Shown: positions 12,774-61,415 of the stretch, in pieces
Numbering within the stretch: position 1 is the first letter of the stretch
Layout of the letters: each line of letters begins with the position of its first letter
NCBI GenBank assembly: GCA_963709585.1
Contig: CAVPXI010000015.1
Coordinates: 160,001 to 224,000 of the forward strand
DNA: 64,000 nucleotides
Origin: Candidatus Dormiibacterota bacterium
Lineage (GTDB): Bacteria > Chloroflexota > Dormibacteria > Aeolococcales > Aeolococcaceae
Direction: 5' to 3'
Notes under the pieces: generated by a model
Databases searched by the model: none
What the model saw: only the letters and a program-made list of their open reading frames with translations
What the model was told of the DNA's origin: nothing
Program-made: the position numbers and the translations under genes

Positions 12774-14445
12774 ATGGGACTCTCGGCTGTGCCCATCCTC
12801 TCGGACAACCCTCTCGTCCGCGCCGCCGCGCGCGTCCCTGCGACCGTCCAGCGCAAGCTCTTGGTGGCATTCGCAATCGTCGTTGCTCTACTCGTTACGG
12901 TCGGTGTTCTGGGTCTCAACGTCTTGAGTCAGTCCAACACTCGCGTCGACGCACTTGGGCAACTGCCACAACGGCTCGCTGCGTATCAGCAGCTCCTCGT
13001 GGACACCGGCAAACTTGGTGGGTTCATGACCGAGCGGGATTTCGTTGTCGGTTGTCTTCCGCCGGAGCCGACCCATTGTACGGCGACGCCGTATACGGAT
13101 GGCGTCCCTGCCCTTAACCGGACGGACGGGGAGATCACCGCAACGCTTGACCTGATGGCTCCGCTGACAAACGTCACCGAGCTGGGGTTCGTGCTCCCGG
13201 CTGACGAGAACGCCATCTTCGCAGCGATCCGCTCGGAATATATCTCGCTTGCTCCAGCCATGATGCAGTTGATCGTCGGCGACGATCACGGCAGCTACGT
13301 CAACAATCAGCCGCAGTCGGATCAGCTGAGCGACGGCTACGGCCACGGACTTTACCCAAATGCCAAACAACTGGTGATCCTGACTTCGAGCGTCTGAATC
13401 AACTCTAGTCGCGCAGGACCACGATTCGAACCTGGCCTCGCAACACCTCTTCATCGGTGTCGCAGCTGGAAGCGCGGCCCTGGCACTAATCCTCGGCGTC
13501 GTTCTTTCGTGGGCGATTGTGGGTCCGATCAAGAAGATGCGGTCTCGCCTTGCTGCGATCGGCTCTGGGGATTTCTCAGAACATGTCAACGTCGACAACC
13601 GCGATGAACTCGGAGCGCTCGCCGCCGATCTCAATCGAATGAACGACGAGGTGAGGCGGCTATATGAGGAGGTGGAAGCCGCGAGCAAGCATAAGTCGGA
13701 CTTCCTCGCCAACATGTCACACGAGCTGCGCACACCGCTCAATGCCGTGATCGGATTCTCCGAGGTGCTGGAAGGCCGCCTCTTCGGTGAACTCAACGAC
13801 AAGCAGGCCGAGTACGTGACCGACATCCACACCTCGGGGCGCCATCTGCTCACCCTGATCAACGACATCCTTGATCTCTCCAAGATCGAGGCGGGCCGGA
13901 TGGATTTGCAGGTCACCAGCTTTTCGTTGCCAGAGGTGCTGCAGAATGTGGAAGCGCTCTTGCGCGAACGCGCAACTCGCCAAGGCATCAGCCTTGGCCT
14001 CGAGGTCGACCCGAGCACCGGAGTCATCGAAGCCGACGAGCGGATGGTCAAGCAGGTGCTCTTCAACCTGCTCTCCAACGCATTGAAGTTCACACCGAAA
14101 GGCGGTCACGTCGACGTCGCGGCGCATACGGAGGGCAAGGAGGTGGTCGTCAGCGTGCACGATGACGGCGTTGGTGTCGATCCGGCGGATCAAGCACGGA
14201 TCTTTGAGGAGTTCCAACAGGTCGGGACTTCCAATCTTCAGGAGGGCACCGGTCTTGGCCTCGCGATCTCGCGGCGTTTCGTCGAGCTCCACGGCGGCAG
14301 CCTCCGAGTTGAGAGCGAGGCGGGCCAGGGCAGCACGTTCACCTTCACGATTCCGAGAACGCAGGGTTCCGCAGCGACAACAGAGAGTGCAGGATCACCT
14401 CCGGAAGTGGCTGGGGCGCCAGCGTCTACCGCGGCACTCTCGTGA
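12774..14445 (+). CDS. HAMP-HisKA-HATPase sensor kinase (apparent +1 frameshift at ~13385)
   Basis: TM-sensor-TM, NRDELG HAMP, SHELRTPL, NLLSNALKF, GTGLGL; removing one T from GACTTC joins both ORFs. Confidence 0.8.
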
Positions 14446-14838
14446 CCACCCTCGCCGAGGATCGGCTGGTCCTCATCATCGAAGACAACGAGAAGAATCT
14501 CAAGCTCGCCCCGCGATCTCCTGCGCTACCACGGTTTCCGCACGATCGAAGCATCGGATGCCGAGACCGGCCTCCAGCTGGCGTCAGATTCGACGCCCGA
14601 CATCATCCTCATGGATATCGAACTGCCGGGCATGGACGGCGTGACGGCGTTAGAACGGCTGCGGGCTGATCCAGCCACAGCCGCCATCGTCGTGGTCGCC
14701 TTCACCGCGTCAGTGATGCCGGTCGACGGCGACCGGTTCTCGCGCCGGTTTGCCGGGGTCATCGTCAAGCCGATCGAGGTCACCGCGCTCCCGAACCAGG
14801 TGCTTGCGTACTGCAATGGGTCGGCGAGAGGAGACTGA
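14442..14838 (+). CDS. Single-domain response regulator (apparent +1 frameshift in C-run 14509-14512)
   Basis: IIEDNEKNLKL and ILMDIELPGMDG..KPI in different frames. Confidence 0.75.
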
Positions 14839-15851
14839 TGGATCGCGCCGCCCGGTTGCTTGTCATCGACGACACCCCGCAGAATGGGCGGCTCCTCGAG
14901 GCCCTGCTGACACCGCACGGTTACACAGTCGCGCTGGCGTATTCGGGCGGCGAGGGACTGGAAAAGCTCCACTCTGAGCCGCCCGACCTGGTGCTCCTCG
15001 ACATCCTCATGCCTGACATGACGGGGTACGAGGTCTGCCGGCAACTCCGCGAGAATCCCGCGACCCGACTCCTCCCGGTCGTGATGCTGACGTCGAGCGG
15101 CGACCAGGACAAGGTCAACGCCATCGAAGCGGGTGCCGACGACTTCATCGCTCGACCGCTCAATCCGCAGGAGCTGCTGAGCCGCGTGCGCTCGCTGCTG
15201 CGGATCAAGGAGTATCACGACACCATTCAGGCGCAGGCCGCAGAGCTTGCCGAATGGAACCGCACCCTTGAGGCGCGCGTGCGCAGTCAGGTTGCACAGC
15301 TTGAGGGTCTCGATCGCCTTCGCCGCTACTTCTCGGCGCCGGTCGCCGACGTCATCATGTCCGGCGCCGCGCAGATGCTCGAGCCGCATCGACGCGAGGT
15401 CACCATCCTCTTCTGCGATCTGCGCGGCTTCACGGCCTTCGCTGCCGTCGCGGAGCCCGAAGACGTGATGTCGGCGCTCAGCCAGTTCTACGAAGCGGTT
15501 GGCGAATTGATCCTTCGTTTCGAGGCAACGCTCGAACAGTTCGCGGGCAACTCGATCATGGCCATCTTCAACGACCCAATGCCATGCACTGCGCACACCG
15601 CTACGGCGGTGGGCATGGCGCTCGAGGTTCGCCAAAGGATGCGAGTGCTGTCCGACGACTGGCGCCGTGCCGGCTTCGATCTTGACGCGAGGGTCGGCAT
15701 TGCGCAGGGGTACGCGACCCTCGGTCGGGTCGGATTCGAGGGACGGTTCGACCTTGCGGATGGGGCGCTCCTCGGGTGGAATCAACTCGGCCTGGTCAAA
15801 GTGCAGCGCGATGATCCGCTTGCTTCCGCAGGTCGCACACGTCATCGCTAG
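14838..15851 (+). pseudogene. REC-adenylate/guanylate cyclase, C-terminally truncated at ~15753
   Basis: REC domain, LFCDLRGFT; similarity stops after GFEGRFD; NxAARL motif absent. Confidence 0.75.
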
Positions 15852-16010
15852 CCGCCGAGGGCTACGAAGCGCCACAGTATCGCGAGGCTACACGCCGTCG
15901 GCTGACCTGTCCGTGCGCTGGCGCACCTAACTGCGTGGTGCGTCAAGTATGTCATTGCCCAAATCTGTGGTCTTATTGCGCTCGCAAGGTGCAGACTTGT
16001 ATTCAAATGG

Positions 16011-16086
16011 TGGTGCCGAGGGACAGAATCGAACTGTCGACACCAGGTTTTTCAGACCTGTGCTCTACCAACTGAGCTACCTCGGC
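16011..16086 (-). tRNA. tRNA-Phe (GAA)
   Basis: Cloverleaf GCCGAGGTAGCTCAGTTGG..CAGGT-CTGAAAA-ACCTG..GTTCGATTC..CACCA. Confidence 0.97.
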
Positions 16087-16166
16087 GATCCGCGACGCAG
16101 TGTACCGGCACCTCACGCCCTTCCCATGGCGCGTTTGGTCCACTGAAGCGCCCGTACAATCAAAGC

Positions 16167-17266: not shown

Positions 17267-18064
17267 TCAGCCGGCGCGGCGGGCCCGGAGCGCGGCGAGC
17301 TGCTCGTCCTCGCCGCCCGCGCCCGAGTAGCGGAGCAGCTCGGGGGGCCTGCCCCCGGTGCCCGCGGGCGATCGGAATCGGGGCACGCGGAGCCGCAGGG
17401 CGGCGACTTCGGTGTCCCGCACCGGACGGAGCACGCCGGAATCGCGCAGCTCCTGGATCCGCCGCCTGAAGGTCCGCTCGCTGCCCTCCGGGCCTCCGTG
17501 GAGGGCCACGTGAAGGCGCAGCAGGTCGTCCCCGGTGAATACGTCGCCGACCAGCGCAGCGGCACCGGCGAGCTGCCGGGTGTCGGCGCGAAGCCGGTCG
17601 AGGGCGGAGCGCAGCGCGGCGGCGCCCGGTGTGTCGAGGTGCAGCCCTCGTCCGGTCGCCGACCAGACCCCGGGGCCGGGAACCGGTCCGTATTGGGCCG
17701 CCGCGTAGTACCAGACCGTGACGCTCCGGGATCGTGCGGGATCGTCCTCGACGCCGACGAGATGGAGACGCTGGCCTCCCCGGGCTCCTCGACGGCCTCC
17801 CAGGTCGATGCCTGCCTCGGCCGCGGCGCGAAGTGCCGCTTCGGGGAACCGCTCCTTGGGGCCCAGATCGCCTGTGGGGAGGGTTCTCTTCAGGGTGAGC
17901 ACGTGCAACGCCCGGCTCGCCGGGGTTCCGGGCTCAGGATCGAACCCGAATACCGCAACCCCCGCGCTCAGCGCCGCCATAGCTCCCTTGGTCATGCTCC
18001 TGGCCTCCTCCAGAGTCGGTGTGGTTTCGGAAGATGATGGCACGAACTGGGCAAATTGTGCCAC
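17267..18064 (-). CDS. NrtR-like regulator (degenerate Nudix domain + winged helix)
   Basis: FTGDDL, RTFRRRI, GGRPPELLRY; start uncertain. Confidence 0.6.
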   Translation of the reverse strand: MAQFAQFVPSSSETTPTLEEARSMTKGAMAALSAGVAVFGFDPEPGTPASRALHVLTLKRTLPTGDLGPKERFPEAALRAAAEAGIDLGGRRGARGGQRLHLVGVEDDPARSRSVTVWYYAAAQYGPVPGPGVWSATGRGLHLDTPGAAALRSALDRLRADTRQLAGAAALVGDVFTGDDLLRLHVALHGGPEGSERTFRRRIQELRDSGVLRPVRDTEVAALRLRVPRFRSPAGTGGRPPELLRYSGAGGEDEQLAALRARRAG

Positions 18065-22205: not shown

Positions 22206-22209
<4 letters not shown>

Positions 22210-30664: not shown

Positions 30665-32176
30665 CTAAACGAGGGTACCCGACGGGTCCAGCCCTTCGAG
30701 GAGCTTCTGGACCGAGGTGACGAAGCGGGTTGCCTGGAGGCCGTCGTTGATGCGGTGGTCGAACGACAGACCCAGGTTCATGATCGGCCGGATCGCGATC
30801 GCGTCACCGACGACCACCGGCCGCTTGACCACCAGATCCATGGTCATGATCGCCGCCTGCGGCTGGTTGATGATCGCCTGGGTCATCACCGCTCCGAGAG
30901 CGCCCGTGTTGTTGAGCGTGAACGTTCCGCCCTGGATCTCATCGAGCTTCAGGTGGTTGGTCCGCGCCCGCGCACCGAGGTCGGCCATGGTGGTCGCGAG
31001 CCCGGTGATGCTCAGCCGGTCCGCGTCGCGCACCACCGGCACGATGAGGTTGTCCTCCAGCGCCACGGCGATGCCGAGGTTGATGGCCCGCTTGACGACG
31101 ATCCCCGCGTCACTCCACGACGCGTTGAGGGTGGGATGGCGTTGCAGCGCCTCGACGACCGCCCGCGCGACAAAGGGCAGGAAGGTGAGCTTGACGCCGT
31201 GCCGCTCCTCGAACGCGGCTTTCTCACGATCGCGAATCCGCCACACCGCGGACATGTCGACCTCCACCATGACGTACGCGTGCGGCGACGTGTGCCGGCT
31301 CCGAACCATGTGCTCCGCAATCGCCCTCCGCACCTGCGTCAGCGGAACAACCGTCTCCCCCTCCCCGGCCTGAGTGAAGGAGGCCGGACCAGCAGACGCC
31401 GAAGCCGCCGTTGGCGCCGTCGAAGCCGGCTGCGGTGCCTGCGTAGGCGACATAGCCGGTGGAGTCGCCGGAGCGGGCGCCGTGGCCGGCGGCCGCGAGG
31501 GCACCGACGAGCCGGCGTCCCTCTGCTGCACGTACTCAAGAACGTCCTTCTTCGTGATCCGCCCGCCGATCCCGCTGCCGGTGATCTGCGACAGATCCAC
31601 CCCGTGCTCGCGCACCAGCATCCGTACCGCCGGGGTCACGTGATAGTCGCCGGCCTGCCCGTTCCCACCGGCTGCCGCATCAGACGCCGGAGCCGCCGCC
31701 GCGGATTCGCTGAAGGCATCCTGAATCGGCCCGACCGCGGTCTCCCCTCCCGCCTGCGCCCGCGCGGGTGGTGCCTGCGGCGCGGTCGGCACAGCTTGCG
31801 GCTCGGAGGGCGCAGTCTGCGGCTCCGCCGGCTCCGTATTCCGCTCCGCGGGTGCCGCTTGCGCGCTCTGCGCCGCCGGCACGCCGACGGCAGCGACCTC
31901 CTTGACATCCGGCTCGACCGCGGCATCCGAAGCCGCGACGCCGGTGTCGATGGAGCAGATCGGCTGTCCCACCGGCACCACGGTGCCTTCCGCGGCGATC
32001 AACTCGGCCATCACGCCGTCAGCCGGGGCAGGGATCTCGGCGTTGACCTTGTCGGTGATCACCTCGGCGATCAACTCGTATTTTGCGATCGAGTCGCCGG
32101 GATGTTTGAGCCATTTGGCGATGGTTCCCTCGGTGACGCTCTCACCGAGCTGCGGCATCGTGACGGTCAGTGCCAT
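30665..32176 (-). CDS. bkdB: 2-oxoacid dehydrogenase E2 dihydrolipoamide acyltransferase
   Basis: MPQLGESVTEG, TDKV lipoyl site, E3-binding domain, FDHR; substrate class inferred from E1. Confidence 0.9.
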   Translation of the reverse strand: MALTVTMPQLGESVTEGTIAKWLKHPGDSIAKYELIAEVITDKVNAEIPAPADGVMAELIAAEGTVVPVGQPICSIDTGVAASDAAVEPDVKEVAAVGVPAAQSAQAAPAERNTEPAEPQTAPSEPQAVPTAPQAPPARAQAGGETAVGPIQDAFSESAAAAPASDAAAGGNGQAGDYHVTPAVRMLVREHGVDLSQITGSGIGGRITKKDVLEYVQQRDAGSSVPSRPPATAPAPATPPAMSPTQAPQPASTAPTAASASAGPASFTQAGEGETVVPLTQVRRAIAEHMVRSRHTSPHAYVMVEVDMSAVWRIRDREKAAFEERHGVKLTFLPFVARAVVEALQRHPTLNASWSDAGIVVKRAINLGIAVALEDNLIVPVVRDADRLSITGLATTMADLGARARTNHLKLDEIQGGTFTLNNTGALGAVMTQAIINQPQAAIMTMDLVVKRPVVVGDAIAIRPIMNLGLSFDHRINDGLQATRFVTSVQKLLEGLDPSGTLV

Positions 32177-32201: not shown

Positions 32202-33186
32202 TCAGTACGCGGCGAGCTCGCGGAGCTTCGCCTCGACCTTGTTTGGGGTGACCAGATAGAACTGCTCCAGCGGCGGCGAGAACGGCATCGCCGGAATCTC
32301 GGGACCGCCGAGCCGCATCACCGGCGCGTCGAGACTGTCAAAGCAGTCCTCCGCGATGATCGCCGCAACCTCCGACGCGACGCTGACTGCGAGGTTCGCC
32401 TCCTGCACGATCAACACCTTGCCGCACTTGCTCGCACTTGCGACGATCGCCGCACGATCGAAGGGGCGCAGCGACCGGAGGTCGACGACCTCGCAGGAAA
32501 ACCCATCTGCAGCAAGGCGATCGACCGCTTCGAGCGAGGTGTGCACCATCATGCCGTAACTGAACACAGCGATGTCCCTACCCTCACGCACCACTCTCGC
32601 GCGATCGAGTGGCACGGTGTACTCGCCGTCCGGCACCTCGCCCTTGACCGCACGGTAGGCACGTTTGTGCTCGAAATAGAGCACCGGGTCCGGGTCGCGC
32701 AGCGCCGAGATGATCATGCCCTTCGCGTCGTACGGAGTTGACGGCACGACCACGCGAAGTCCCGGGATGTGGGCGAAGATCGCTTCGATCGACTGGGAGT
32801 GGTACAGCGCGCCGTGCACTCCCCCGCCAAAGGGTGAGCGCACCACCATCGGCACGTTCCAGTCACCGTTGCTCCGGTAGCTGATTTTCGCCGCCTCGCT
32901 GATGATCTGATCGACCGCCGGCATGATGAAGTCCTGGAACTGGATCTCGGCGATCGGACGGAGTTCCGTTCATCGCCGCACCGATTGCGACGCCGACGAT
33001 CAGTGATTCGGCGAGCGGGCTGTCGAGCACCCGCCATTCCCCGAACTCCTTCTGCAGCCCCTCGGTGACCCCGAACACGCCGCCCTTGGCTCCCACATCC
33101 TCGCCGAGGATCATGACGCGCTCGTCGCGCTGCATCTCCTCGCGGATGCCATCGCGGATCGCCTGGATGTACGTCTTCTCGGGCAC
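32202..33186 (-). CDS. bkdAB: 2-oxoacid dehydrogenase E1 beta (apparent +1 frameshift at ~32964)
   Basis: GEDVG..GGVF and HSQS, FEHK in two frames; removing one base restores GLRPIAEIQF. Confidence 0.9.
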
Positions 33187-37388: not shown

Positions 37389-37538
37389 CAGGCTGCCCCC
37401 TGGGGCGATGTCTTCATAGGATGCTTTCTGGGATCGCTACTAAGTCGGCGGCCAGTATAGACCGGGGTTTCGGCGGACTTCCGCGATATTTCACAGATTG
37501 GTCACTTCCGTATGGGGATTGTCCCCGCGGCGGTCCGA

Positions 37539-38683: not shown

Positions 38684-39706
38684 ATGCAAACCGTCGCGGC
38701 CGTCTCGTCTGACGCGATCGGCGACCTGTTCCCCGATATGCCGCGGGCCTTCGATTTCGACGACGTGTCGCTGGTGCCGCGCATCCCGTCGACGCTCGCG
38801 CACCGGACCGAAGCCCTCCCGGCCATGGACTTCGGGCCGGTGCGGCTGACCGTCCCGTTGATCGGGTCGCCGATGCCGGACGTCTGCGGCGTCGACATGT
38901 GCCGCGCTCTCGGCGAGCACGGCGCCCTCGGGATCCTGCCTCGCTTCCAGCCCATCGATGAGCAGGCCGCCGAGCTTCGCGACGTCGCGGCCGCGGGCGG
39001 CCCCGTCGCTGCCGCGCTCGGCGTCACCGGCGATTACCGCGACCGTTTCGCACGCATCGTCGAGTCCGGCTGCAGGATCGTGTGCCTTGACACGGCCAAC
39101 GGCGCGCACGAGCAGGTCGGCCATGCGGTGCGATGGGTGCACGACCAGGATGCCGCGGTATTCCTCATCGCCGGCAACGTCGCGACCGCCGAGACATTCC
39201 GGTGGCTCGAGGACCAGGGGGTGGACGCGATCCGGGTGGGGATCGCCGGCGGGTCGGTGTGCGAGACCCGCACCGAGACAGGCGTGCACGCCCCGACGCC
39301 CTACAGCGTCTCCGAATGTGCCCGGGTCCGCCGGCACGCTCTGATCATCGCTGATGGAGGGATCCGCAGCCCAGCCGACATGTGCAAGCTCCTCGCGCTG
39401 GGCGCGGACTGCGTCATGGTCGGCTCCGCGCTCGCCGGGACCTACGAAGCCCCGGGACGCGTGATCGTCGTCGACGGGAAGAAGTTCAAGATCATGCGCG
39501 GCGCCGCCTCGTTCTCGGTGCAGCAGGAATTCGCCGGCGAGGATCCCGAGTACATCGAGGGAGCCAAGTCGATCGTGGCGTACAAGGGCAGGGTCGCCGA
39601 TGTGATCCAGCGCTACGTGGCCGGACTGCGCAGCTCGATGTCGTACATGGACGCGCGCACCCTCGACGAATACCGGAGCAACGCGAGCTTCATCCGGATG
39701 CGCTAG
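38684..39706 (+). CDS. IMP dehydrogenase/GMP reductase family, no CBS domains
   Basis: FDDVSLVP, AGNVAT, GIAGGSVCETR, IADGGI, GLRSSMSY. Confidence 0.9.
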   Translation: MQTVAAVSSDAIGDLFPDMPRAFDFDDVSLVPRIPSTLAHRTEALPAMDFGPVRLTVPLIGSPMPDVCGVDMCRALGEHGALGILPRFQPIDEQAAELRDVAAAGGPVAAALGVTGDYRDRFARIVESGCRIVCLDTANGAHEQVGHAVRWVHDQDAAVFLIAGNVATAETFRWLEDQGVDAIRVGIAGGSVCETRTETGVHAPTPYSVSECARVRRHALIIADGGIRSPADMCKLLALGADCVMVGSALAGTYEAPGRVIVVDGKKFKIMRGAASFSVQQEFAGEDPEYIEGAKSIVAYKGRVADVIQRYVAGLRSSMSYMDARTLDEYRSNASFIRMR

Positions 39707-43125: not shown

Positions 43126-45789
43126 CTAGAGTGCCGGAAGCAAGGGCGCAAGCGGCGTGCCACCCCCACCGATGCTGCTTGGACCGTTGTTGGTGACGAT
43201 GTCGAGGTGGGCAAAGATCGTGGCGATGTCCTGCGACCACGGATCGGTGCCGTTGACCGAAGCGGTCTCGAACGGGAATCCCCAGACGGTCTGGAACTCG
43301 CCGGGGGCCACGGGAGCGCCGCTGCCGTCGACGATCGGGAGGATGCTCCCGCTGGGACTGAACTCAGTAACGATGTTGTTGACCGATCGAGTGCCGTTGG
43401 TATTGGCGATGTACGCCCCGTAGTCCTGGAAAGCCGTGGCCAGGATCAGGCCGGCCGGGCTCAGGTTGAGGGTGCTGAGGTCCAATGTCGAAGGCAGAGC
43501 CAGCAGCGCGCCCATCACCAGCTTTGGGTTGCTCCCCGTATAGGTCGTTGAAGCATTCGTATCGCACTTCGTTGTTGCGGGCCAGGTGTGGCAGGTCGTC
43601 GTGCTGCCGAAATAGAGGTTGGCCGCATCGACGTCGATCTGCAGCGCATGCGTGATTGCGCCACCCTTCACGAGCTCGCCGAGCCGGATCGCGCCACCGA
43701 GAGAGGACAGATCGCTGCCGCCATCGACGCCGACCCGCCCATCTCCGTAGAGATCGCCGGGCGTGGGCTCGTCGAACCAAACCGTTCCCGGGCCACCGGC
43801 GATGCAGCGCGCGAACGGCTCACCCTCGATCAAGGTGTGTCCATCGGCTAGGACGGCGGCGATGGGGTTGTTGTGAAGCGACGAGTAAACGATGAAATCC
43901 GCCGCCATGGGAATGGGGGTCCACAGCTTAGGTGTAGCTTGGATGCATCGGTTTGAGACCTGGCCTCCGTTGGTCTCGATCTCGGTGAGGGGTGCCGTCG
44001 GCGTCATCACGATGATGTGCTGATCGCTCACGAGGGTCTTCGTCTGCGCCGGTATCAGGTTGGCCGGCTCGTACTGCGCGCCGGAACCAATCGGCATGTT
44101 CCATATCGATCCGCTCGTGAACGGTTGAAGGAATGGATCGCGGATCACCAATGACGCCGACGCAAGGCTCCCCGAGGCGACCGTTACCGTCTGCGTGGAC
44201 GGCGCGGTGTAGCCGTAGTCGCTCACGCTGAGCGTGTAAGTTCCCGGCGGCAGATTGCCAAAAGTGAAATCTCCGTTGTTGTTAGTAGTTGTCGATCCGC
44301 CACCGACGGTTCCAGCGTAGACCACAGTGGCCCCGATGACTGGTTGCGCGGGAGTGCGGCTGTCCAGGACGGTGCCACTGATGCCGTATGTGAACTGGAA
44401 CCAGCCCTCGATGTCGATGGCCACGTTGACCCTCCCGGCGGCGTTGAACACGTCCACGTCACCGTTGCCGGCGTCGCCGGCCGTGTCCACCTGTACCACC
44501 GCGAGGTTGGGCAGCACTTCGCCGGCCTTCAGGTTGATGTCCGACACCGAATGGCTGGTCTGGCTTGCCGGGTAGAGCGTCAGATAGGTTGCCTGCGTCG
44601 GCGCGATCGCGGTCAGGTTGGCGATCACTGCAACCGCCGGTGTGCTCGCAGTGGTAGCCGGGAGTCCGGCTTTCCCAGCCACCACGACCGTATCGACACC
44701 GAGGGCGTTCAACGTCTGGCCGGTGCAGGGCAGTCCCGATCCCGTCCTCGTGTCGCAGATCCGGGTGGGCGTGATGGCCTGGTATTGAGCACCCTGTGTC
44801 GCCGCAGCACTGCCGAACCATCCGTTCGCGTCAAGGACGACGTTGATCGTGCCGGCTGCGTTGTACACGCACACCGACGTGTCCGCACTGCCCGTCACGG
44901 CAGGACCCAGTTTCACCATCACTCTGTTCGCCTCGACCTCACCGGCGGTGAGGTTGAGCGTCGAAAAAGGCGGCGGATGGGTCGCGTTGTACAAACAGGT
45001 TCCGCTCGAGGTGGTCGGAAACACGCTCAAGAAGGTCGGCTTGGTCCCTGCCACACCGGTCAGGTTCAGAACCGCCGCATCTGCAGGCCCGGAGATGACA
45101 TCGCCTCCGGTCCCGGCCACATCGACAATCAGCGGTGTCGCACCCACTGCGCCAGCCTTGCATCCAGGCGACGGCGGGTTGCTGCGCGTGTCGCAGACGC
45201 GGACTGGCGCGATCGCATGGAACTCTCCGGTCATGTCCGTCGGAGCCTTGGGCTCGAAGTACCCCTCCACGTCCGCAACCACATTGACCGTTCCCAGCGC
45301 ATTGTAGATGTTCACCGCACCACCCGCACCCATGGTCGCAGTGACCAGGTTGGGGATGACAGTGCCTGGCCCGAAGTTCAGGTTCGAGACGTGCGGCATC
45401 GGGGCGCCATATGGAAAGACCGTCAGCAGGCTTGGCGCCGTCCCCGCCACCTCAGTCACGTTGAGCACCACGGCCGTTGCATCTGCGGGAATCGGGTCGC
45501 CGACCTTCAGCCCGGTCACGCCGGTGAGCTGTAGTTTCCGGACCACTCCTGGTCCGAGCGCTAGAGCGCCGCACTGGACGCAAGTTCCCGCCCTCGTGTC
45601 CAGGATCCGGAACGGGTCGAGCGGAACATAGTTGGCCAGATTCGGCGCGCTGGCAATGCGCGGCGTGACGGCGTGGGACGAGGCCACAGCCGAGGTTGGT
45701 GCGACGACCCACCCCACCGAACCAACGGCAATGCCAATGAGTTCGATCCCCTTCCAGCCCCTCATCGGTCGAAGTGTACTGCCGGACAT
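43126..45789 (-). CDS. Large secreted multidomain protein (three PxRxxDTR repeats, carboxypeptidase-regulatory-like domain, unknown C-terminal domain)
   Basis: Signal-like N-terminus; repeats ending DVEGYF/DANGWF/DIEGWF; GTYTLSVS. Confidence 0.8.
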   Translation of the reverse strand: MSGSTLRPMRGWKGIELIGIAVGSVGWVVAPTSAVASSHAVTPRIASAPNLANYVPLDPFRILDTRAGTCVQCGALALGPGVVRKLQLTGVTGLKVGDPIPADATAVVLNVTEVAGTAPSLLTVFPYGAPMPHVSNLNFGPGTVIPNLVTATMGAGGAVNIYNALGTVNVVADVEGYFEPKAPTDMTGEFHAIAPVRVCDTRSNPPSPGCKAGAVGATPLIVDVAGTGGDVISGPADAAVLNLTGVAGTKPTFLSVFPTTSSGTCLYNATHPPPFSTLNLTAGEVEANRVMVKLGPAVTGSADTSVCVYNAAGTINVVLDANGWFGSAAATQGAQYQAITPTRICDTRTGSGLPCTGQTLNALGVDTVVVAGKAGLPATTASTPAVAVIANLTAIAPTQATYLTLYPASQTSHSVSDINLKAGEVLPNLAVVQVDTAGDAGNGDVDVFNAAGRVNVAIDIEGWFQFTYGISGTVLDSRTPAQPVIGATVVYAGTVGGGSTTTNNNGDFTFGNLPPGTYTLSVSDYGYTAPSTQTVTVASGSLASASLVIRDPFLQPFTSGSIWNMPIGSGAQYEPANLIPAQTKTLVSDQHIIVMTPTAPLTEIETNGGQVSNRCIQATPKLWTPIPMAADFIVYSSLHNNPIAAVLADGHTLIEGEPFARCIAGGPGTVWFDEPTPGDLYGDGRVGVDGGSDLSSLGGAIRLGELVKGGAITHALQIDVDAANLYFGSTTTCHTWPATTKCDTNASTTYTGSNPKLVMGALLALPSTLDLSTLNLSPAGLILATAFQDYGAYIANTNGTRSVNNIVTEFSPSGSILPIVDGSGAPVAPGEFQTVWGFPFETASVNGTDPWSQDIATIFAHLDIVTNNGPSSIGGGGTPLAPLLPAL

Positions 45790-45997: not shown

Positions 45998-48395
45998 TTG
46001 CATGTGCTGCTGGAGGGCTCAGCCTTGCGCCGACTCGCCTCGCGCACTCGGATCGAGGGAACGGGCGTGCCCCGAAGCGTTCGCGTCCTTCAGGGCGTGA
46101 CCGGCGCGATAGTGCTGGTGTATCTGGCATCGACCATTCTCCGTTCGCCCGGGACTTACAGCACCTTTTATGACGTCTGGGTCGCCAACCTTGGATATGC
46201 CGGCTGCACGGCGCTGTGCATATGGCGCGCGATTGCCCGACGCTCAGCTCGCTGGGGATGGGGGGCACTCGCGGCTGGCCTCCTCCTCTTTACCGCGGGA
46301 TCCGTGCTGTGGACCAGCTGGGTTCAATTCTTCAACCCTGTCCCGTACCCCTCGATAGCGGACGCCTGTTTCCTGGCCTTCTTTTTCTTGGCGTTCCTCG
46401 GGATCGGCCTGCTGGTGCGCGAGACGCTCCCCAAGACATCGAGAACCATCTGGGTGGACGCCCTGATCGCCGCACTCGGTGTCGCGGCCCTGGAGGCCAT
46501 GCTCGTCATCGGCCCGATCTGGAAGGCCAGCTCAGGGGACTTCGGAACTGTCGCGACGAACATCGCATATCCGATCGGCGACCTCGTCCTGGTCACCATG
46601 ATCGTCGCGGTCTTCGCGGTACGAGGCTGGCGTCCCGGCCTCCTCTGGTGGACGTTGGGGATAGGCCTCGTGATCTTCGCCGCGGCCGACAGCGTCTACG
46701 TCCTGCGGGTGACCGAGGGTACCTATGTGACGGGGACGCCGCTGGACAGCCTGTGGCTGATCGGCGCGTTTTTCATGGTGATTGCTGCGTGGCAGGGTCT
46801 GAGCTCCCAGATCAAACATTCCCCGAAGATTCAGGCGTCGAACATCGTTCCGGTGCTGTTCGTCTTGAGTTCGCTCGGCATCGTGGTGTATGCGACTGCA
46901 TTTCCGGGGCAGTTCTTCCTGGGAGTCGCTCTCGCCACCACAACGCTCGTCATCGCCCTCGCTCGTTCCGCGTATGCGTTTCGACAGTTGCGGGCCCTCG
47001 CGGACAGCAAGCGCGAGGCGCGTACAGACGAGCTCACGGGTTTGCCAAACCGCAGGCTGTTTTTCGAGCGGCTTCTCGTGTGCTTCGAGCCAAGCCCGAC
47101 GCCGCACCGCCTGGCCGTGCTCATGATCGACCTCGATCGCTTCAAGGAGATCAACGACAGCCTCGGACACCATGTCGGGGATGACGTGTTGCGCGAGCTC
47201 GGCCCCCGCCTCACCGCCGCAGCGGGGAGCACGGGAACGGTCGCGCGGCTCGGCGGAGACGAGTTCGGGTTGGTGCTGTCACCACTCGTCGATATGAACG
47301 AGGCAACCGAGATGGCGGAACGTGTGCGCGAGGTTCTGCGCGCGCCGTTTGAGCTCGAGGGCATGAGTTTTCGAGTTCGACGCCAGCATCGGGATTGCGC
47401 TCGCGCCTGACCACGGCACGACTCCCGAGACCGTGCTGCAGAAAGCCGATGTGGCGATGTTCGCCGCCAAACGCGCGCATGCCCCGTGGCAGATCTATTC
47501 GTCGGACCACGACCAGAACGCGCTGGATCGGCTCGAGCTGATGGAAGACCTGCGCGACGCCATCCATCACGGGGAGATCGTCCCGTTCTACCAGCCGATC
47601 CTCGACCTGCGCACGGGCAGTGTCATGGGTGCCGAGGCCCTGGCTCGCTGGCTACACCCGTCACGCGGAATCCTTGCGCCGGCGGCGTTCCTGAACCTGG
47701 TGTCGGACGCCGGCTTGATGGGCCCCTTCACAATGGCGATGTTGGATCAGGCGTTCGTCCAGCAGGCGAGATGGTCCAAACAGGGATACGACCTTGGCGT
47801 CTCGGTCAACATATCGGCCGCAAGTCTGCGCGACGAAGAGCTGCCCGAAAAAATTGCCACGCTCATGTCGACGCGCGGCGTCCATCCGGCGAGGGTCACG
47901 CTGGAGATCACCGAGGACTGCTTCATCGCCAACCCCGAGGAGGCCGTGCTCGTACTCGAGCGGCTGCGCGATCTGGGCGCGAAACTCTCGATCGACGATT
48001 TCGGCACCGGCTTCTCGTCACTGACGTACATGCGCCGGCTTCCGGTCAGTGAACTGAAGCTCGATCGAACGTTTCTCAGCGGCGCGCCTCGGGACGAGCG
48101 CGCTGTGTCGGTCATCCGCTCCACGGTCGACCTGGCGCACTCGCTCGGCCTGCGCATCGTCGCCGAGGGGATAGAAAACCTCGATGCCCTGGCGCTGGTG
48201 GACGACCTGGGCTGCGACGCCGCGCAGGGGTACCTCATGGGCCGACCAGTGCCCGCCGAGGAATTCGACCTCGGACCCGTCGCCGTGCAGCAACCTCGAG
48301 TAGGGAAACATCTGAAACCGTTGGTCGGGACGCCGCGCCGTCGATCGACAGGTCAACCGAACTACCCGGCGAGGACCCTCACCCGAACAGGCTGA
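45998..48395 (+). CDS. Membrane GGDEF-EAL protein (apparent +1 frameshift at ~47376)
   Basis: Multiple TMs, GGDEF, EAL, DDFGTG; removing one T from GAGTTC restores VDASIGIA. Confidence 0.85.
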
Positions 48396-50097: not shown

Positions 50098-53061
50098 TCA
50101 GCGCCCGTGGCAGTACTTGTACTTCTTGCCGGACCCGCAGGGACACGCCTGGTTGCGCCCGACCTTGCCCTGCGGCGCCCCGTTCGCGCCGCCGCTTGCA
50201 CCGGCGCCGTTGCCGTTGCCGTCCGCGCGGCGCGTGCCCGAGGCTGACGACTCGACGAGGTTGCGCACGATCGGTTTGGCGATGAGTGGCGCCGACACGC
50301 GTGGCCCGGTCGCCCGCGCCAGCGCACCGCTTGCGAGCGCGGCCGCGGGCCGCGCCGGCGGCACCTGCGCTCCATCGGTCGCGCCGCCAGGTCGGTCGGC
50401 GCGAGGCGACGGCGGCGCGGTCGCCCCGGCGGCGCCGGCAGTCGGGGCTGGGATCGCCGCCGCCGTCTCCGGGTCCGCCGCGTCCGCGCCAGGACTGGCT
50501 TCGTTGGGATCGACGCGACGGATCTGCACGTTGAGCAGCGCGCGCACGATCTCGCGCTGGATGTCCTCGGTCAGATCCTGGAACGCCGTGAAGGCCGCCG
50601 CCTTGTACTCCACCAGCGGATCCATCTGACCGTACGCCTGGAAGCCCATCCCCTCGCGGAGATGATCCATCTGGGTCAGGTACATGAGCCATCGAGAATC
50701 GATCACCTGGAGCATCACGCTCTGCTCGACCTCGCGGAGCAACTCAGTGCCGTATTCCTGCTCCTTCTCCTCGTACAGGCCGATCAGCTCGCCGCTGAGC
50801 GTCTCCGAAACCTCCTCGACGGAGTCACCCAGGCTGTCCGTGCTGACTTCCGACAACTGCGGCAGCCCCGCGGCGAACTGGCGCATCTGCGTCCAGAGCC
50901 CCTCGAAGTCCCAGGCCTCGCGGTGCCGTCCTTCGCAGTATGTCGGCACCTCGGTCGCGACCACGTGCTCCACCATCGAGATGAAGTTCGAACGCGTGTC
51001 GGTTCCCTCGAGGATCTTGCGGCGTTCGCCGTAGATGATCTCGCGCTGCTTGTTCATGACGTCGTCGTACTCGACGACGTGACGGCGGCTGTCGAAGTTC
51101 TGTCCCTCGACCCGCGCCTGCGCCCCTTCGATCTGCCGCGACACCATCTTCGACTCGAGCGGCGTGTCCTCGTCCACGCCGAGCTTGCCCATGACGCCCT
51201 GCATGCGCTCACCACCGAAGACGCGCATCAGGTCGTCCTCGAAGGACAGGAAGAATCGTGACTTACCCGGGTCGCCCTGGCGGCCCGCACGACCGCGGAG
51301 CTGGTTGTCGATGCGCCGCGATTCGTGACGCTCGGTGCCGATGATGTACAGGCCGCCGGCATCGGCGACACCATCACCGAGCACGATGTCGGTGCCACGC
51401 CCGGCCATGTTGGTCGCGATGGTGACGCTGCTGCGCTGACCCGCGTTGGCGATGACGTCGGCCTCTTTCTCGTGCAGCTTGGCGTTGAGGACGGAGTGCT
51501 GAACGCCGATCTTGTCGAGCATGCGGCTCAATCGCTCGCTCTTCTCGATGCTCGTCGTGCCGACGAGGATGGGCTGTCCCTTCTTGTACCGGTCGGCGAT
51601 CTCCTCGACCACCGCCCGGTATTTGCCCTCCTCACCTTTGTAGATCAGGTCGGGCTCGTCCAGACGCACCATCGGCCGGTGCGTCGGGATAGGGACCACC
51701 TCGAGCTTGTAGATCTTGTGGAACTCCTCGGCCTCGGTGAGCGCGGTGCCGGTCATGCCCGCAAGCTTGTCGTAGAGGCGGAAGAAGTTCTGGAACGTGA
51801 TCGTCGCGAGGGTGACCGTCTCCTGCTGGACGGTCACGCCCTCCTTGGCTTCGATCGCCTGGTGGAGGCCGTCCGACCAACGCCGTCCCGGCATGGTTCG
51901 CCCGGTGAACTCGTCGACGATGATCACCTCGCCGTCGCGCACGATGTAGTCGCGATCGCGGAGCCACAACGCGTGTGCGCGGAGCGCCTGGTTGATCTGG
52001 TGCGCCTCCGCGGCGTGCTCCATCTCGTAGACGTTGGAGATTCCCGTCCACTTCTCGATCTTGTCGACGCCCTCCTCGGTGAGCGTCGCCGACTTGGTCT
52101 TCTCGTCGATCGTGTAGTCGTCTTCGGCCACGAGCCGCGGGATCAAGCGTGCGTACGTGTAGAACTTGTCGGTTGCCTCGCTGGCCTGACCGCTGATGAT
52201 CAGCGGCGTGCGCGCCTCGTCGATGAGGATCGAGTTGACCTCGTCGACGATCGCGTAGCGCAGTCGCCGCTGCACGCACCGATCGAGCTTCTGGGCCATG
52301 TTGTCGCGCAGGTAGTCGAAGCCGAGCTCATTGTTGGTCGAGTACGTGATGTCCGCGGCGTATGCCTCGCGCCGCGTGCACGGGCGCAGATGCTGCAGAC
52401 GCGGATCCGGATGGGTGTCGTCGACGAACTCCGGGTCGTAGATGAAGGACAGGTCCTGTCCGGCGATGACCCCGACCGACATCCCGAGGAAGTGGTAGAG
52501 CGATGCGTTCCAGCCGGCGTCGCGTCGTGCCAGGTAGTCGTTGACGGTCACGAGGTGCGCCCCGCGTCCCTCGAGGGCATTCAGGTACAGCGCCAGGGTC
52601 GCGACCAGCGTCTTGCCTTCGCCGGTCTTCATCTCGGCGATGCGTCCCTGGTGGAGCACGATGCCGCCGATGAGTTGCACATCGAAGTGGCGCATGCCGA
52701 GGCTGCGCTTCGACGCCTCGCGGACCACCGCGAACGCCTCGGGCAGGAGGTCGTCGAGTGCCTGGCGACGTCCCGCCTCGCGCTCCTGCTCCTCGGCCCG
52801 CTCCATGGCCATGTCCTCGGTCTCCTCACCGAGGCCGGCCACGAACGACTGGCCGTGGGTCATGTCGACTCCCTCGACGCCGAGGCGCTCCCGGAACTCG
52901 CGGGTCTTGTCGCGAAGCTCCGCGTCGGTGAGCGCGGACATCTCCGCTTCGAGTTCGTTGATGAGGTCCACGACCCCCTGATAGCGCTTGATCTCGCGCT
53001 TGACGGGGTCACCCAGGACCTTGCTGATCGGCTTTCCAAAGAGAGGCATATTCTTCTTCAT
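50098..53061 (-). CDS. secA: Preprotein translocase SecA
   Basis: [45 protein letters not shown]; DEVD reads DEVN. Confidence 0.98.
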
Positions 53062-55320: not shown

Positions 55321-56712
55321 ATGATCTTCGAGCAGTACTACCTCGAGTGCCTCTCGCAGGCCTCATATCTCATCGGCGATGAGACGACGGGGCGCGCGGT
55401 GGTGGTTGACCCTCGCCGCGACATCGAGCAATACCTCCACTCGGCGAGGGAACACGGAGTCGCGATCGAGTTGGTCATCGAGACACATTTTCACGCCGAC
55501 TTTCTCTCGGGTCATCTCGAGCTGGCCACCGCGACCGGCGCGCAGATCGGCTTCGGGGCGAGCGCCAAACCAGAGTTCGCGGCGCGGGCCCTGCACGATG
55601 GCGAGCGCATCTCGCTCGGCCAGGTCACCTTCGAGATCCTCGAAACGCCCGGGCATACGCCCGAGTTGATCAGCATCGCCGTCTACGAGCATCCCGACGA
55701 CGCGGTCCCGTACGGCGTGCTCACCGGCGACACGCTCTTCATCGGTGATGTCGGGCGACCGGACCTGCTGTCATCGTTGGGGTCAACGTCCGAAGAGCTC
55801 GCGAACATGCTCCATCACTCGCTCGGCGCCAAGCTCCTGACGCTTCCTGACGCGACCCGCGTGTTCCCGGGTCACGGCGCCGGTTCAGCGTGCGGCAAGA
55901 ACCTCTCCACCGACCTGTCATCGACCATCGGCGAGCAACGCCTTTCGAACTACGCGCTGCAGCCGATGACGCGTGCCGAGTTCGTCCGGGTCGTGACCGA
56001 GGGTCAAGTCGCCGCACCGAGTTACTTCGCGTTCGACGCGATGCGCAACCGCGAGGGCCACGAGCTCCTCCACGAGCTCGAGCAGCCGATGCCGCTGACA
56101 CTCGACGGCGCCCTCGCGCACCAGCGCGAGGGTGCGATCCTGCTCGACACCCGGGATGCCGGCGAATTCGCGACCGGACACCTGGTCGGCTCGGTGGGCG
56201 TCGGCCTCGAGGGTCGCTACGCAGAGTACGTCGGCAGTTTGGTGCACCCGGACGAGCGGATCGTGCTCCTGACAGAGCCGGGCACCGAGCTCGAGGCCAA
56301 GGTGCGGCTCGGCCGCATCGGTTACGACCACGTCGCCGGGTACGTCGAGAACCTCTATGAGGCGTTCCTGAACCGCCCAGATCTCGTCCGGTCCGCTTCT
56401 CGACTCACGGTTCCGGCCTTCGAAGAACGTCAACGCACGATCCCCGCTCTCCAGGTCGTCGACGTGCGGAATCCGGGCGAGACCGAGAATGCCTCGATGC
56501 CGGGCGCCGCCAACATCCCGCTGCCGCGCCTGCGCGATGGATGGAGGGCGCTTGACCCGGACCGGCCCACGGTCGTGTTTTGCGCGGGTGGCTACCGTTC
56601 TTCGATCGCCGCGAGCTTGTTGCGCAGCGTCGGTTTCAATGACGTATCGGACATCCTGGGCGGATACCACGCCTGGGCGGCAGTGCAGGCGCGTAAGGGC
56701 GCATCAAGCTGA
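55321..56712 (+). CDS. MBL-fold hydrolase with two rhodanese domains (persulfide dioxygenase-like)
   Basis: THFHADF, PGHTPE, GDVGRPDL, PGHGAGSACG, CAGGYRS. Confidence 0.92.
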   Translation: MIFEQYYLECLSQASYLIGDETTGRAVVVDPRRDIEQYLHSAREHGVAIELVIETHFHADFLSGHLELATATGAQIGFGASAKPEFAARALHDGERISLGQVTFEILETPGHTPELISIAVYEHPDDAVPYGVLTGDTLFIGDVGRPDLLSSLGSTSEELANMLHHSLGAKLLTLPDATRVFPGHGAGSACGKNLSTDLSSTIGEQRLSNYALQPMTRAEFVRVVTEGQVAAPSYFAFDAMRNREGHELLHELEQPMPLTLDGALAHQREGAILLDTRDAGEFATGHLVGSVGVGLEGRYAEYVGSLVHPDERIVLLTEPGTELEAKVRLGRIGYDHVAGYVENLYEAFLNRPDLVRSASRLTVPAFEERQRTIPALQVVDVRNPGETENASMPGAANIPLPRLRDGWRALDPDRPTVVFCAGGYRSSIAASLLRSVGFNDVSDILGGYHAWAAVQARKGASS

Positions 56713-58251: not shown

Positions 58252-58258
58252 ACCGCGA

Positions 58259-58963: not shown

Positions 58964-58974
58964 GGACAGGCTGG

Positions 58975-59748
58975 TCAGCGTCCGGCGCGGAGCGCGGCCG
59001 CCTCGCGGCGCTCGAGCCACCAGAAGACGGGGAGCACCGACTGACGCCGAAGACGCCACGGCTGGTTCGCCAGCCGCCAGGCCCATTCGAGGCCGGCACC
59101 ACGGACGGCGGCGGGTGCGCGGCGGACGCGGCCGGCGAGGAAGTCAAGCGAGCCACCCACGCCGATTCCCGAGGCGGCCCCGATGGGGCCGAGGTAACGG
59201 TCGAGGAAGAGCTCCTGACGGCCGGCACCGAACGCGGCCAGGACCATCTCCGGCTGCGCTGTCTCGAGCTCGGCTGCTGTCGCCTTTCCGGGAGGGCCGT
59301 CACTCACCGCCACGACCTGGAGTTCCGGGTGCGTCCCGAGCATGTGGTCGCGCGCCGCGACCGCGACGCCCGGCGCCCCGCCGACCAGCGCGATCCGGTG
59401 AGCGTGGCGTACCGCCTCCGGGAGGTATGCGGCGAGCAGGTCGGCGCCACCGACACGCTCGACCTCGGGATGACCGCGACGGCGGAGCGCGCGTACCACG
59501 CCGATGCCGTCGGGCACCACGAGCGCGGCCGAGTCGAGCACCGAGCTGAACGCCGGGCTGCGCCGCGCCATCATCACCATCTCGGGATTGAGGGTGATGA
59601 CCACCGCGGGATGCGAGGTCCTGTCGGTACGACCACGTTCCACCAAGTCCACAAGCGTCGCTACGGCCGTCGCCATGTCGACGATGTCGACGGGGCACCC
59701 GAGCACACGAGCTCGCTCCGTCGTTCGCGCGACGGGCGGCGCCACCAC
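58975..59748 (-). CDS. WecG/TagA/CpsF glycosyltransferase
   Basis: TLNPE, PDGIG, GVGGSLDF, GLEWAWRL. Confidence 0.92.
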   Translation of the reverse strand: MVAPPVARTTERARVLGCPVDIVDMATAVATLVDLVERGRTDRTSHPAVVITLNPEMVMMARRSPAFSSVLDSAALVVPDGIGVVRALRRRGHPEVERVGGADLLAAYLPEAVRHAHRIALVGGAPGVAVAARDHMLGTHPELQVVAVSDGPPGKATAAELETAQPEMVLAAFGAGRQELFLDRYLGPIGAASGIGVGGSLDFLAGRVRRAPAAVRGAGLEWAWRLANQPWRLRRQSVLPVFWWLERREAAALRAGR

Positions 59749-60149
59749 TACCGCTTGGTGTACTGCGGCGCCTTCCGTGCTCGCTTCAGACCGTATTTCT
59801 TCCGCTCTTTCTCGCGCGAGTTGCGGGTGAGCAGGCCCGCCGCCTTGAGCACCGGGCGCAGCTCGGGATCGGCAGCGATCAGCGCGCGCGCGATCCCGTG
59901 GCACACGGCGCCGGCCTGGCCCGCGATGCCGCCACCGAAGACCTTGACCGAGACTTCGAAACGGCCGGTCGTGTCGGTGACCCGGAGTGGCTGCGTGACC
60001 ACCGTCTCGAGGTCGCGGCGCCCGAAGTATTCGCTCGGCGGACGGTTGTTGACGACGATGACGCCGTCGCCGGGGACGATGCGCACGCGCGCGACCGCCG
60101 TCTTGCGGCGGCCGGTGGCCTGCTTGTATGCCTCAACTGCTGCGGGCAA
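59748..60149 (-). CDS. rpsI: 30S ribosomal protein S9
   Basis: [23 protein letters not shown]. Confidence 0.97.
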
Positions 60150-60606
60150 CGATGATCTCCCCTAGCTCGCCGAAGGTGATCGGCTGCGGTCGCTGGGCCT
60201 CGTGTTTGTGCTCCGACCCCGCGTAGACGCGAAGGTGGGTCAGCTGCTCGGCACCGAGGGTGTTGTGCTGCAGCATGCCGCGGACCGCATGCATGATCGG
60301 AAACGTCGCGTCGACGGCCATCGCCTCATCGAAGGTGCGGACGCGCCGCCCGCTGGGATACCCGGAGTAGCGGTCGTACTGCTTGAGCGTGCGCTTGCGA
60401 CCGGTGACCACGATGTCACGCGCATTGATGACGATGACGTGCTCGCCGGTGTTGATGTGCTGGGTGAACTGGGGACGGTGCTTGCCGCGCAGGACGCGGG
60501 CGATGTTGGCCGCCAGACGGCCGAGCGTCTGCCCGCGAGCGTCGACGAGGAACCAGCGCTGCTCGAGCTCCGCCGGCTTTGCCTGGTAGGTCAGCATTGC
60601 GCTCAT
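60133..60606 (-). CDS. rplM: 50S ribosomal protein L13
   Basis: LGRLA, GKHRP, SGYPSG, AVRGML. Confidence 0.96.
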
Positions 60607-61415
60607 GCTGCGAGCACCTGCTCTGCGAGGGTGGCCTCGTAGCGCACCGACCACTGGTGCAGGCCGCGTGCGGGAGCGACCGCCACCGACGGATCGCGCG
60701 CGGTCGCAGTGTCGACGAGTGACCCGAGCCACTCCGGCGTCGCGCGTCCCTGACCGATTTTCACGAGGGCGCCCGAGAACGATCGCATCATGCCGCGGAG
60801 GAACGCATCGGCATGCACGGTGATCGCAATCGTCTCGAGGATCGGTCCTTGTTGGTCGGCCGCGGCGGTTTCTCCGAGGTCGTGGCGGTCGATGCTGACC
60901 GACGCAACGTGGCGCACGGTGCCGCCACCCGGACGCGGCGAGGTCCCGAACGCTGCGAAATCATGCCTGCCGACCAGGTGCGCTGCCGCCGTCCGCATCG
61001 CGTCGATGTCGAGCGGACCGCGAACCGTCCAGGCGTTGCGGCGCATCACCGGCGCGCGGCCGTCCCTGCACACGATGAGGTAGCGGTAGGTTCGCTCCAC
61101 GGCATCGCGACGTGCATCGAAGCGCTCCTGCCGGATCGCGACGCTGCGCACCGCAAGATCCGCGGGGAGCGTCGCGTTGAGCGCGTTGCGCAGCTCGTCG
61201 GGCGCCCAGCCACGCTCGAGCGTGCATCCGACGACCTGCCCGTGCGCGTGCGCGCCGGAGTTGGTCCGCCCTGCCGCGGTGAGCGCGGGCGTCTCGGACG
61301 TGACGGTCCGGAGCGCGTCATTGAACACGCCCATTGCGGTCCGCACGCTCGGCTGGATCTGCCAGCCGGCGAAATCGGTGCCGTCGTACTCGAGGGTCAG
61401 GCCGTAGGTGGGCAC
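60603..61415 (-). CDS. truA: tRNA pseudouridine(38-40) synthase
   Basis: YDGTDFAGWQ, GRT(N)SGAHA, FDAR, FLRGMMR; catalytic Asp reads Asn. Confidence 0.93.
   Translation of the reverse strand: MPTYGLTLEYDGTDFAGWQIQPSVRTAMGVFNDALRTVTSETPALTAAGRTNSGAHAHGQVVGCTLERGWAPDELRNALNATLPADLAVRSVAIRQERFDARRDAVERTYRYLIVCRDGRAPVMRRNAWTVRGPLDIDAMRTAAAHLVGRHDFAAFGTSPRPGGGTVRHVASVSIDRHDLGETAAADQQGPILETIAITVHADAFLRGMMRSFSGALVKIGQGRATPEWLGSLVDTATARDPSVAVAPARGLHQWSVRYEATLAEQVLAA

Follow-up and report, generated by a model that had tools for sequence, protein, structure and literature searches.

Why do the genes for SecA, TruA and ribosomal protein S9 appear to have lost conserved residues, and why do three other genes look like pseudogenes, at one and the same five-base motif? 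The question is raised by a stretch of 64,000 nucleotides (the window; C15:160001-224000) from G000, a soil metagenome-assembled genome (MAG) of Candidatus Dormibacterota that consists of 3.52 Mb in 24 contigs, with 66% G+C and an estimated completeness of 88.8%. An earlier note on the window had drawn attention to nine single-base anomalies, all at GASTC (S being G or C), and had read them as the footprint of a DNA modification that produces consensus errors in genes that are intact in vivo. Our findings support that view through independent reads, three further contigs, the direction of the changes and the contiguity of the assemblies concerned. The anomalies are very probably long-read consensus errors induced by DNA modification, most likely in nanopore sequencing of native DNA, and not mutations; the genes are most likely intact. 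The specificity of the motif, the direction of change, the absence of the variants from independent reads and the link to assembly type are matters of direct observation, and from them we infer which platform was used, that a modification exists, what its chemistry is and which enzyme writes it.

The window contains 76 GASTC sites, of which 15 are hit and 61 are intact, the latter including the three (849, 18392 and 22360) that had been cited as such. Each hit is either a G>A change at position 1 of the motif (C>T at position 5 when it concerns the other strand) or a gain of one extra base that yields GASTTC. To the nine sites already described we add six: five (32739, 37442, 37480, 47369 and 51264) come from a comparison with relatives and one (45743/4) from a comparison with reads. 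The genus of G000 has at least 18 other species genomes, the nearest of which is about 90% identical to G000 in secA. For the window, the syntenic region of five relatives was aligned and the set was later extended to up to 12 relatives per site; outside the window we sampled three 124-kb regions, on contigs C14, C4 and C6 of G000, giving 258,216 covered positions (about 258 kb) on four contigs in all. The region anchored at C7:300001-304000 was unmatched in 18/18 genus genomes and was excluded from the comparison, the loci L041 (on C13) and L042 (on C23) lie outside all counts, and the unpublished genomes G021, G026 and G030 are the basis of no claim. A change is called private when it is found in G000 alone relative to its syntenic relatives; G|ASTC is the G at motif position 1 and G|AWTC (W being A or T) is the same position in the sister motif. 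The motif context was taken from G000 itself, as a unanimous five-base ancestral context proved too strict and left just 8 GASTC positions (2/8 hit).

Private G>A changes in the window occurred at 9 of 61 G|ASTC positions, compared with 249 of 17,115 over all G (odds ratio 12, p=2e-7), and at 0/82 G|AWTC positions. On contigs C14, C4 and C6 the corresponding figures were 41/343 at G|ASTC, 1933/101522 over all G and 5/501 at G|AWTC, so that window and contigs together give 50/404, 2182/118637 and 5/583, respectively. The earlier note had made its motif depend on a genome-wide enrichment at GASTC relative to GAWTC, and over the 258 kb that enrichment is found. Because Asp>Asn and Glu>Lys replacements could simply be well tolerated, a codon-matched control was carried out on Asp/Glu-like GAS triplets in which S is the third base of the codon (GAS|TC when TC follows): private G>A affected 15/110 of these triplets when TC came next and 16/4548 otherwise (odds ratio 45, p=3e-17). 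A raw context ranking made without codon control had been uninformative, with the relatives enriched too and a Val>Ile-type context, G+TCGA (57/1005), ranked high; the codon-phase and triplet controls resolved this. Analysis of the bases flanking the hits revealed no longer motif, the hit rate being 17% after C and 6% after G.

The change is directional. Ancestral GASTC motifs were lost through 69 private substitutions, and 50 of these are G>A changes at the first position; creation of the motif by A>G occurred just 2 times. The hits also disregard selection: the private G>A rate is 13.6% at non-synonymous GASTC positions and 4.3% at third codon positions, and conserved motifs of essential genes are affected (SecA DEVD and GDPGES, S9, and TruA GRTD). 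These data bear on the possibility of real, motif-directed hypermutation, for example if the C that ends GASTC (position 5) were methylated and then deaminated, so that the variants would exist in the cells. Deamination of methylcytosine classically leaves C>T changes at a single position of a motif, and G000 does have a C5 methyltransferase gene, on contig C4; nevertheless we regard hypermutation as extremely unlikely, because conserved residues of essential genes are hit, because the non-synonymous rate exceeds the rate at third codon positions, and because deamination leaves the one-base insertions at the same motif unexplained.

The independent reads point in the same direction. We compared the window with the Logan contigs of X1, the public run that matches it best (0.86 of sampled words, depth 12-17). 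These contigs have an intact GASTC at 45743/4, 47369, 51264, 52236 and 55667 and they lack the extra base at 47376; no X1 contig has the window's letter at any of these six GASTC-related places, all of which read GASTC, and this too argues against mutations that the cells would carry. Runs X2, X4 and X5 have thin cover or represent more distant strains and were used solely for agreement at 47376, 51264, 52236 and 55667. Differences between X1 and the window also occur away from GASTC: those covered by relatives (54175, 54631, 56861 and 58508) lie at positions that are polymorphic among the relatives and look like ordinary strain variation, and five others have no relative cover.

The six substitutions that had been described earlier affect the residues claimed, and each time the DNA reads AASTC or GASTT (motif coordinates here and below are those of the + strand, and the identities of the window genes are supported by Pfam domains). 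In SecA, the change at 52232..52236 (GAGTT) converts DEVD to DEVN at residue 276; 52236 is C in all contigs of all four runs (17, 15, 19 and 33 contigs, many of which belong to other organisms) and in 11 of 12 relatives, the twelfth having a gap. A second SecA site, at 51260..51264 (GACTT), belongs to the newly found set and replaces Glu by Lys at residue 600 in the GDPGES motif, and here C is found in X1, X5 and 12/12 relatives. Ribosomal protein S9 has LTRN for LTRD at residue 110 (59818..59822, GAGTT) and TruA has GRTN for GRTD at residue 70 (61258..61262, GAGTT), a motif that the earlier note regards as catalytic; 59822 and 61262 are each C in 10/10 covering relatives. In the protein with metallo-beta-lactamase (MBL) and rhodanese parts, HTPES has become HTPEL (Ser>Leu, residue 116) at 55663..55667 (GAGTT), a place at which X1 (16.2/16.2), X2 (6/6) and X5 have C and both genus homologues (2/2) have GAGTC. 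The IMPDH-family protein, which has an IMPDH domain, shows EGAE>EGAK (Glu>Lys, residue 355) at 39566..39570 (AAGTC), with G in 5/5 relatives; in the first comparison with five relatives, 52236, 59822 and 61262 likewise had the unmutated base in 5/5. In the response-regulator/guanylate-cyclase protein (domains Response_reg and Guanylate_cyc), AACTC at 15549..15553 gives FAGD>FAGN (Asp>Asn, residue 238), and the codon is GAC or GAT in 6/7 paralogues and orthologues, the copy in G008 also being AAC.

Among the added sites are changes that no protein would register. The change at 32735..32739 (GAGTT) is a synonymous third-position change in the gene for the E1-beta subunit, that at 37442..37446 (AAGTC) leaves Leu as Leu near the end of a gene, and that at 37476..37480 (GACTT) is intergenic, lying between open reading frames (ORFs); 5/5 relatives have C at 32739, G at 37442 and C at 37480. 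At 47365..47369 (GAGTT) a Leu is replaced by Phe in a GGDEF-EAL protein, four bases before the frameshift in that gene, and C is found at 47369 in X1, X5 and all covering relatives (3/3, then 6/6 with more genomes). The site at 45739..45744, in an 887-aa ORF on the - strand, reads GAGTTC where X1 has GAGTCT. These two adjacent differences, each with depth 15.8/15.8, combine to place Glu in the window opposite Arg in X1; taken singly they would give G and K, and no relative covers the place.

The +1 frameshifts claimed earlier for E1-beta and the GGDEF-EAL protein could both be located as switches of frame. The E1-beta gene, on the - strand, changes frame at 32961..32966 (GAGTTC; GAAMNG | RPIAEIQF), and a one-base gap is found there in 5/5 relatives; a test of codon phase based on GC3 flags the same site. 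In the GGDEF-EAL gene, the switch (GMSFRV | DASIGIAL) is at 47373..47378 (GAGTTC), with a one-base gap in 3/3 relatives and one base fewer at 47376 in X1 (17.1/17.1) and X5. The third frameshift, at 13382..13387 (GACTTC, presumably GACTC in truth) in a histidine kinase with HAMP, HisKA and HATPase domains, stands as a frame switch, from frame 1 to frame 2, confined to the 15 nt of 13383-13397 and beginning inside GACTTC; the exact base could not be pinned, and neither the syntenic relatives nor the read contigs cover the site. The piece of the kinase downstream of the frameshift contains HAMP, HisKA and HATPase_c, and one kinase paralogue, in G011, shows a single alignment gap a few bases downstream of the 13382 site. 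The kinase and the response-regulator/cyclase gene form a pair (window 12705-15851) that is one of a family of paralogues in G000, other copies being at C14:424196-426522 and C7:285327-290333. The best genus matches to the pair (about 79%) begin just past the frameshift site, and the N-terminal sensor part, which is divergent, has no match among the Pfam families.

The insertions, like the substitutions, extend beyond the window. Over the 258,216 covered positions there are 14 strictly defined private one-base insertions, of which 7 are at GASTTC/GAASTC (291 sites); those at 32961 and 47373 are additional. When the GC3 codon-phase test was applied to the whole genome, a +1 jump was found at 90 of 1061 scorable GASTTC/GAASTC sites and a -1 jump at 39, the background for a +1 jump being 954 of 24,178 TT/AA doublets (p=6e-12).

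Some private features of G000 lie outside the motif. A four-base insertion, TATT, at 31837-31840 and a one-base insertion, T, at 18001, just upstream of an ORF start, are private to the window relative to all covering relatives, and neither is at GASTC. Private G>A changes in the window are also enriched before TGGG (6/44; 22284, 27956, 36493, 37713, 38034 and 52411) and before CCCA (6/53; 21019, 23916, 24673, 30770, 42664 and 59155). These contexts share no longer motif and they are not among the top contexts on the other three contigs, save for G+TGGA at third codon positions (11/67); they may represent natural codon-context variation. Over the genome there are 4327 GASTC and 5375 GAWTC sites despite the 66% G+C, and judged from these raw counts GASTC looks under-represented relative to GAWTC.

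If the genomes of the genus are compared with one another, the signal follows the contiguity of the assembly and not phylogeny or gene content. Six relatives assembled in 2-20 contigs have private hits of their own (G|ASTC 121/2003; GAS|TC 41/601 versus 100/18134 otherwise), although in the window region alone each of them has just 1-3 hits and the signal becomes clear only with more sequence. Seven relatives in 110-270 contigs lack the signature (G|ASTC 9/861; GAS|TC 2/239), and the two groups differ with p=6e-11 for G|ASTC and p=9e-5 for GAS|TC. The absence of the signal from fragmented assemblies of the same genus (9/861) is a further argument against hypermutation in the cells. Three of the contiguous genomes, G003, G006 and G008, have 2-5 contigs and about 3 Mb and yet a completeness of just 72-91%, a value that could reflect marker genes disrupted by similar frameshift errors.

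What might write a mark at GASTC? The earlier note had found no methyltransferase in the window. That is correct, and the search that it had suggested for such genes and for dnd and dpd genes elsewhere in the genome was productive in its first part: contig C7 carries two genes of the N6_N4_Mtase family (PF01555) that lie 2 kb apart, MT1 (C7:583009-584196) and MT2 (C7:586185-586979; loci L013, L014, L104 and L110), scoring 144 and 95.5 bits, respectively, where the Pfam cut-off is 26.7. Candidates for motif IV are DPPF at residue 145 of MT1 and DPAY near residue 50 of MT2, with FCGSG at residue 209 of the latter; a D-type motif IV is associated with adenine and an S-type with cytosine-N4 methylation. 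The solved structures nearest to MT1 and MT2 are those of M.RsrI and CcrM. Both genes are present in 18/18 genus genomes, at 69-90% identity. They lie among housekeeping genes, with an MMPL transporter, an acyl-CoA dehydrogenase and a small-molecule methyltransferase encoded nearby, and no restriction endonuclease was seen among the neighbouring genes. Relatives of MT1 at about 60% identity occur in many Solirubrobacterales, Microbacteriaceae and Chloroflexota, the closest loci being in MAGs of Candidatus Dormibacteraeota/Dormiibacterota. The first 90 or so codons of the MT1 ORF (C7:583009-583270) are extremely rich in Arg and correspond in relatives to sequence with 1-3 TGA codons or to no match; translation probably begins around residue 90. 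The MT2 orthologues of G008 (C1:969756-970524) and G006 (C1:105962-106694) each appear as two overlapping matches in different frames, and these look like assembly frameshifts too.

Besides MT1 and MT2, the methyltransferases found in G000 are a C5 enzyme, encoded on C4, and a type I HsdM, encoded on C10. Among five relatives that bear the signature, an orthologue of the C5 enzyme is found in 1/5 and of HsdM in 0/5, and only MT1 and MT2 are conserved in all. The C5 gene (C4:347709-348704; L015:1486-2481) has an ORF that failed the GC3/GC1 filter for host-like genes and an orthologue, at 80%, in G006 alone; it is probably strain-specific or mobile. Its lack of conservation among the relatives that carry the signal is one more difficulty for a deamination model. 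A search of G000 for Dam-type families found nothing and one for the Eco57I family gave a single match below threshold, and the search for MT-A70 was uninformative, the family having matched in no control genome. Because MT1 and MT2, unlike the C5 enzyme and HsdM, are conserved in the relatives with the signature, and because no DndC and just one TGT gene were found in G000, MT1 and/or MT2 seem to be the best candidate writers of the putative GASTC mark.

The latter two genes concern the possibility that the miscalls arise from a non-methyl modification at the G-A step, such as phosphorothioate (Dnd/Ssp) or 7-deazaguanine (Dpd). Such modifications are motif-specific, and the error does affect the G itself or the step from it to the A. 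In G000, however, DndC (TIGR03183) was not found at 88.8% completeness, with DndB/D/E and Ssp not searched for; no second gene of the TGT family that could be DpdA was found, the single PF01702 match (C23:233546-234595) being that expected of the tRNA enzyme, and other dpd genes were not searched for. Two conserved methyltransferases of adenine type are also a simpler source of a mark, and we think a non-methyl modification highly unlikely.

We propose the following mechanism for methylation-induced miscalling. GASTC would carry a modified base on both strands, most likely N6-methyladenine at the A, written by MT1 and/or MT2. At some sites, reads of the modified strand would show A in place of the preceding G, or GA followed by an extra A, and the consensus would keep the wrong call, which on the + strand would appear as GASTC>AASTC, GASTC>GASTT or GASTC>GASTTC. 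It is conceivable, though in our estimation the chances are somewhat below even, that GASTC methylation is an epigenetic mark of the whole genus, possibly much wider, written by MT1 and MT2 as a restriction-free pair, perhaps with one enzyme each for GAGTC and GACTC. If that is true, an uncultured phylum has an orphan system like that of CcrM, and the error footprint in long-read MAGs could be used to trace the mark through public assemblies at no extra cost.

A related explanation dispenses with the modification altogether: the sequence of GASTC alone might confuse the long-read model, producing a context-specific basecalling or polishing error. The tracking of the signal with assembly type is as this predicts, and MT1 and MT2, being present in all tested genomes, do not tell the two explanations apart. 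Published work on R10.4.1 chemistry speaks against it. R10.4.1 Kit 14 assemblies have ambiguous A/G and C/T positions with the minimal shared motif RA/TY, and amplification by PCR lowered the number of ambiguous positions from 2357 to 44, with errors that differed between strains (PMC11610573); in a second report, R10.4.1 assembly errors were mostly C>T and G>A, strand-specific and induced by modification (PMC11610603). PCR-amplified DNA thus loses G>A/C>T errors of the kind seen here, and the portions of the two papers available to us do not name GASTC as a general error context. GAWTC, which differs by one base, is clean (0/82 in the window and 5/501 on the other three contigs). A modification-free error is in our judgement unlikely.

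Several points weigh against the attribution to modification-induced error and temper our confidence in it. The sparing of GAWTC fits a GASTC-specific enzyme and fits equally well an error governed by the base in the middle of the motif, and no long-read genome without MT1 and MT2 serves as a negative control. The modification and a strand bias were not seen directly, as we worked from contigs and not from raw signal or per-strand pile-ups. Contig number is a mere proxy for long reads (the signature is found in genomes of 2-24 contigs and not in those with 110-270), the platforms used for the assembly, the relatives and X1 not being on record; G010, with 20 contigs, has 0/17 at GAS|TC, albeit on little data. 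X1 is near-identical and not identical to the assembly, so that it is not proven to represent the same population, and 59822 and 61262 are not among the X1 difference rows listed. Finally, zones in which ORFs overlap gave a poor account of the frameshifts: GASTTC/GAASTC showed a weak excess in zones of up to 300 nt (152 observed versus 111.9 expected, p=2e-4) and none in zones of up to 120 nt (42 versus 36.5) or 60 nt (13 versus 11.2). In the genome-wide ranking of 6-mers by this approach, GAGTTC/GAACTC came fourth (102 observed versus 62.8 expected). The overlap test was too noisy, a stricter first run having missed two of the three known frameshifts of the window, and the GC3-phase test took its place.

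A public genome therefore contains false calls if our interpretation in terms of modification-induced error is right. The window has the wrong sequence at 15 of its 76 GASTC sites, with an apparent loss of conserved residues from SecA, TruA and S9 and with three genes that resemble pseudogenes. By extrapolation from a window in which about one-fifth of the GASTC sites are hit, the whole genome would hold several hundred false substitutions and some 100-200 false frameshifts, and these errors may contribute to the completeness estimate of 88.8%. Asp-Ser and Glu-Ser codon pairs would be a source of bias in comparative, selection and pseudogene analyses of these MAGs, and the six other few-contig genomes of the genus have their own private sets of errors. 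The footprint is also a lead in a phylum that has no cultured representative: it makes a modification of GASTC probable and singles out MT1 and MT2 as candidate orphan methyltransferases.

The phenomenon belongs to an artefact type that is already known, modified bases being an established cause of motif-specific errors in nanopore assemblies, and a literature search that joined Dormibacterota, methylation and nanopore found no paper. The resemblance to the methylation errors reported for R10.4.1 data (PMC11610573, PMC11610603) is close: in both cases G>A/C>T changes occur at a fixed motif with R directly before A (RA/TY), a fraction of the motif sites is wrong and the errors are missing from independent reads. 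The RA/TY pattern is precisely what results when the G that precedes a presumably methylated A is read as A. The present case differs from what the available portions of those reports describe in that they do not name GASTC, in that it concerns a MAG from an uncultured phylum, with one-base insertions as well, and in that platform, strand bias and modification were not directly observed.

As to the motif itself, GASTC is recognised by BstNBI and by a type IIS system of Caldicellulosiruptor that has two methyltransferases (PMC9799307, as far as the available text goes), and a GASTC specificity predicted by REBASE proved wrong for one Moorella enzyme (PMC6700114, again from a partial text). The PleI/MlyI/BstNBI type IIS systems, with one methyltransferase per strand for GAGTC and GACTC (PMC9799307), share with G000 the same five bases and the presence of two neighbouring methyltransferase genes; unlike them, G000 has no AlwI-family endonuclease that we could see beside MT1 or MT2. 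MT1 and MT2 match CcrM (PDB 6pbd) at E values of 2e-17 and 7e-17, a remote similarity. With CcrM and M.HinfI, which act on GANTC (PMC8919816), they have in common the N6_N4_Mtase domain, an inferred motif that is a subset of GANTC, and a genus-wide distribution with no visible restriction partner. According to the part of that source available to us, some CcrM relatives no longer act on the GASTC half of GANTC and are restricted to GAWTC; in G000 the footprint is on GASTC and not on GAWTC, which is the opposite arrangement.

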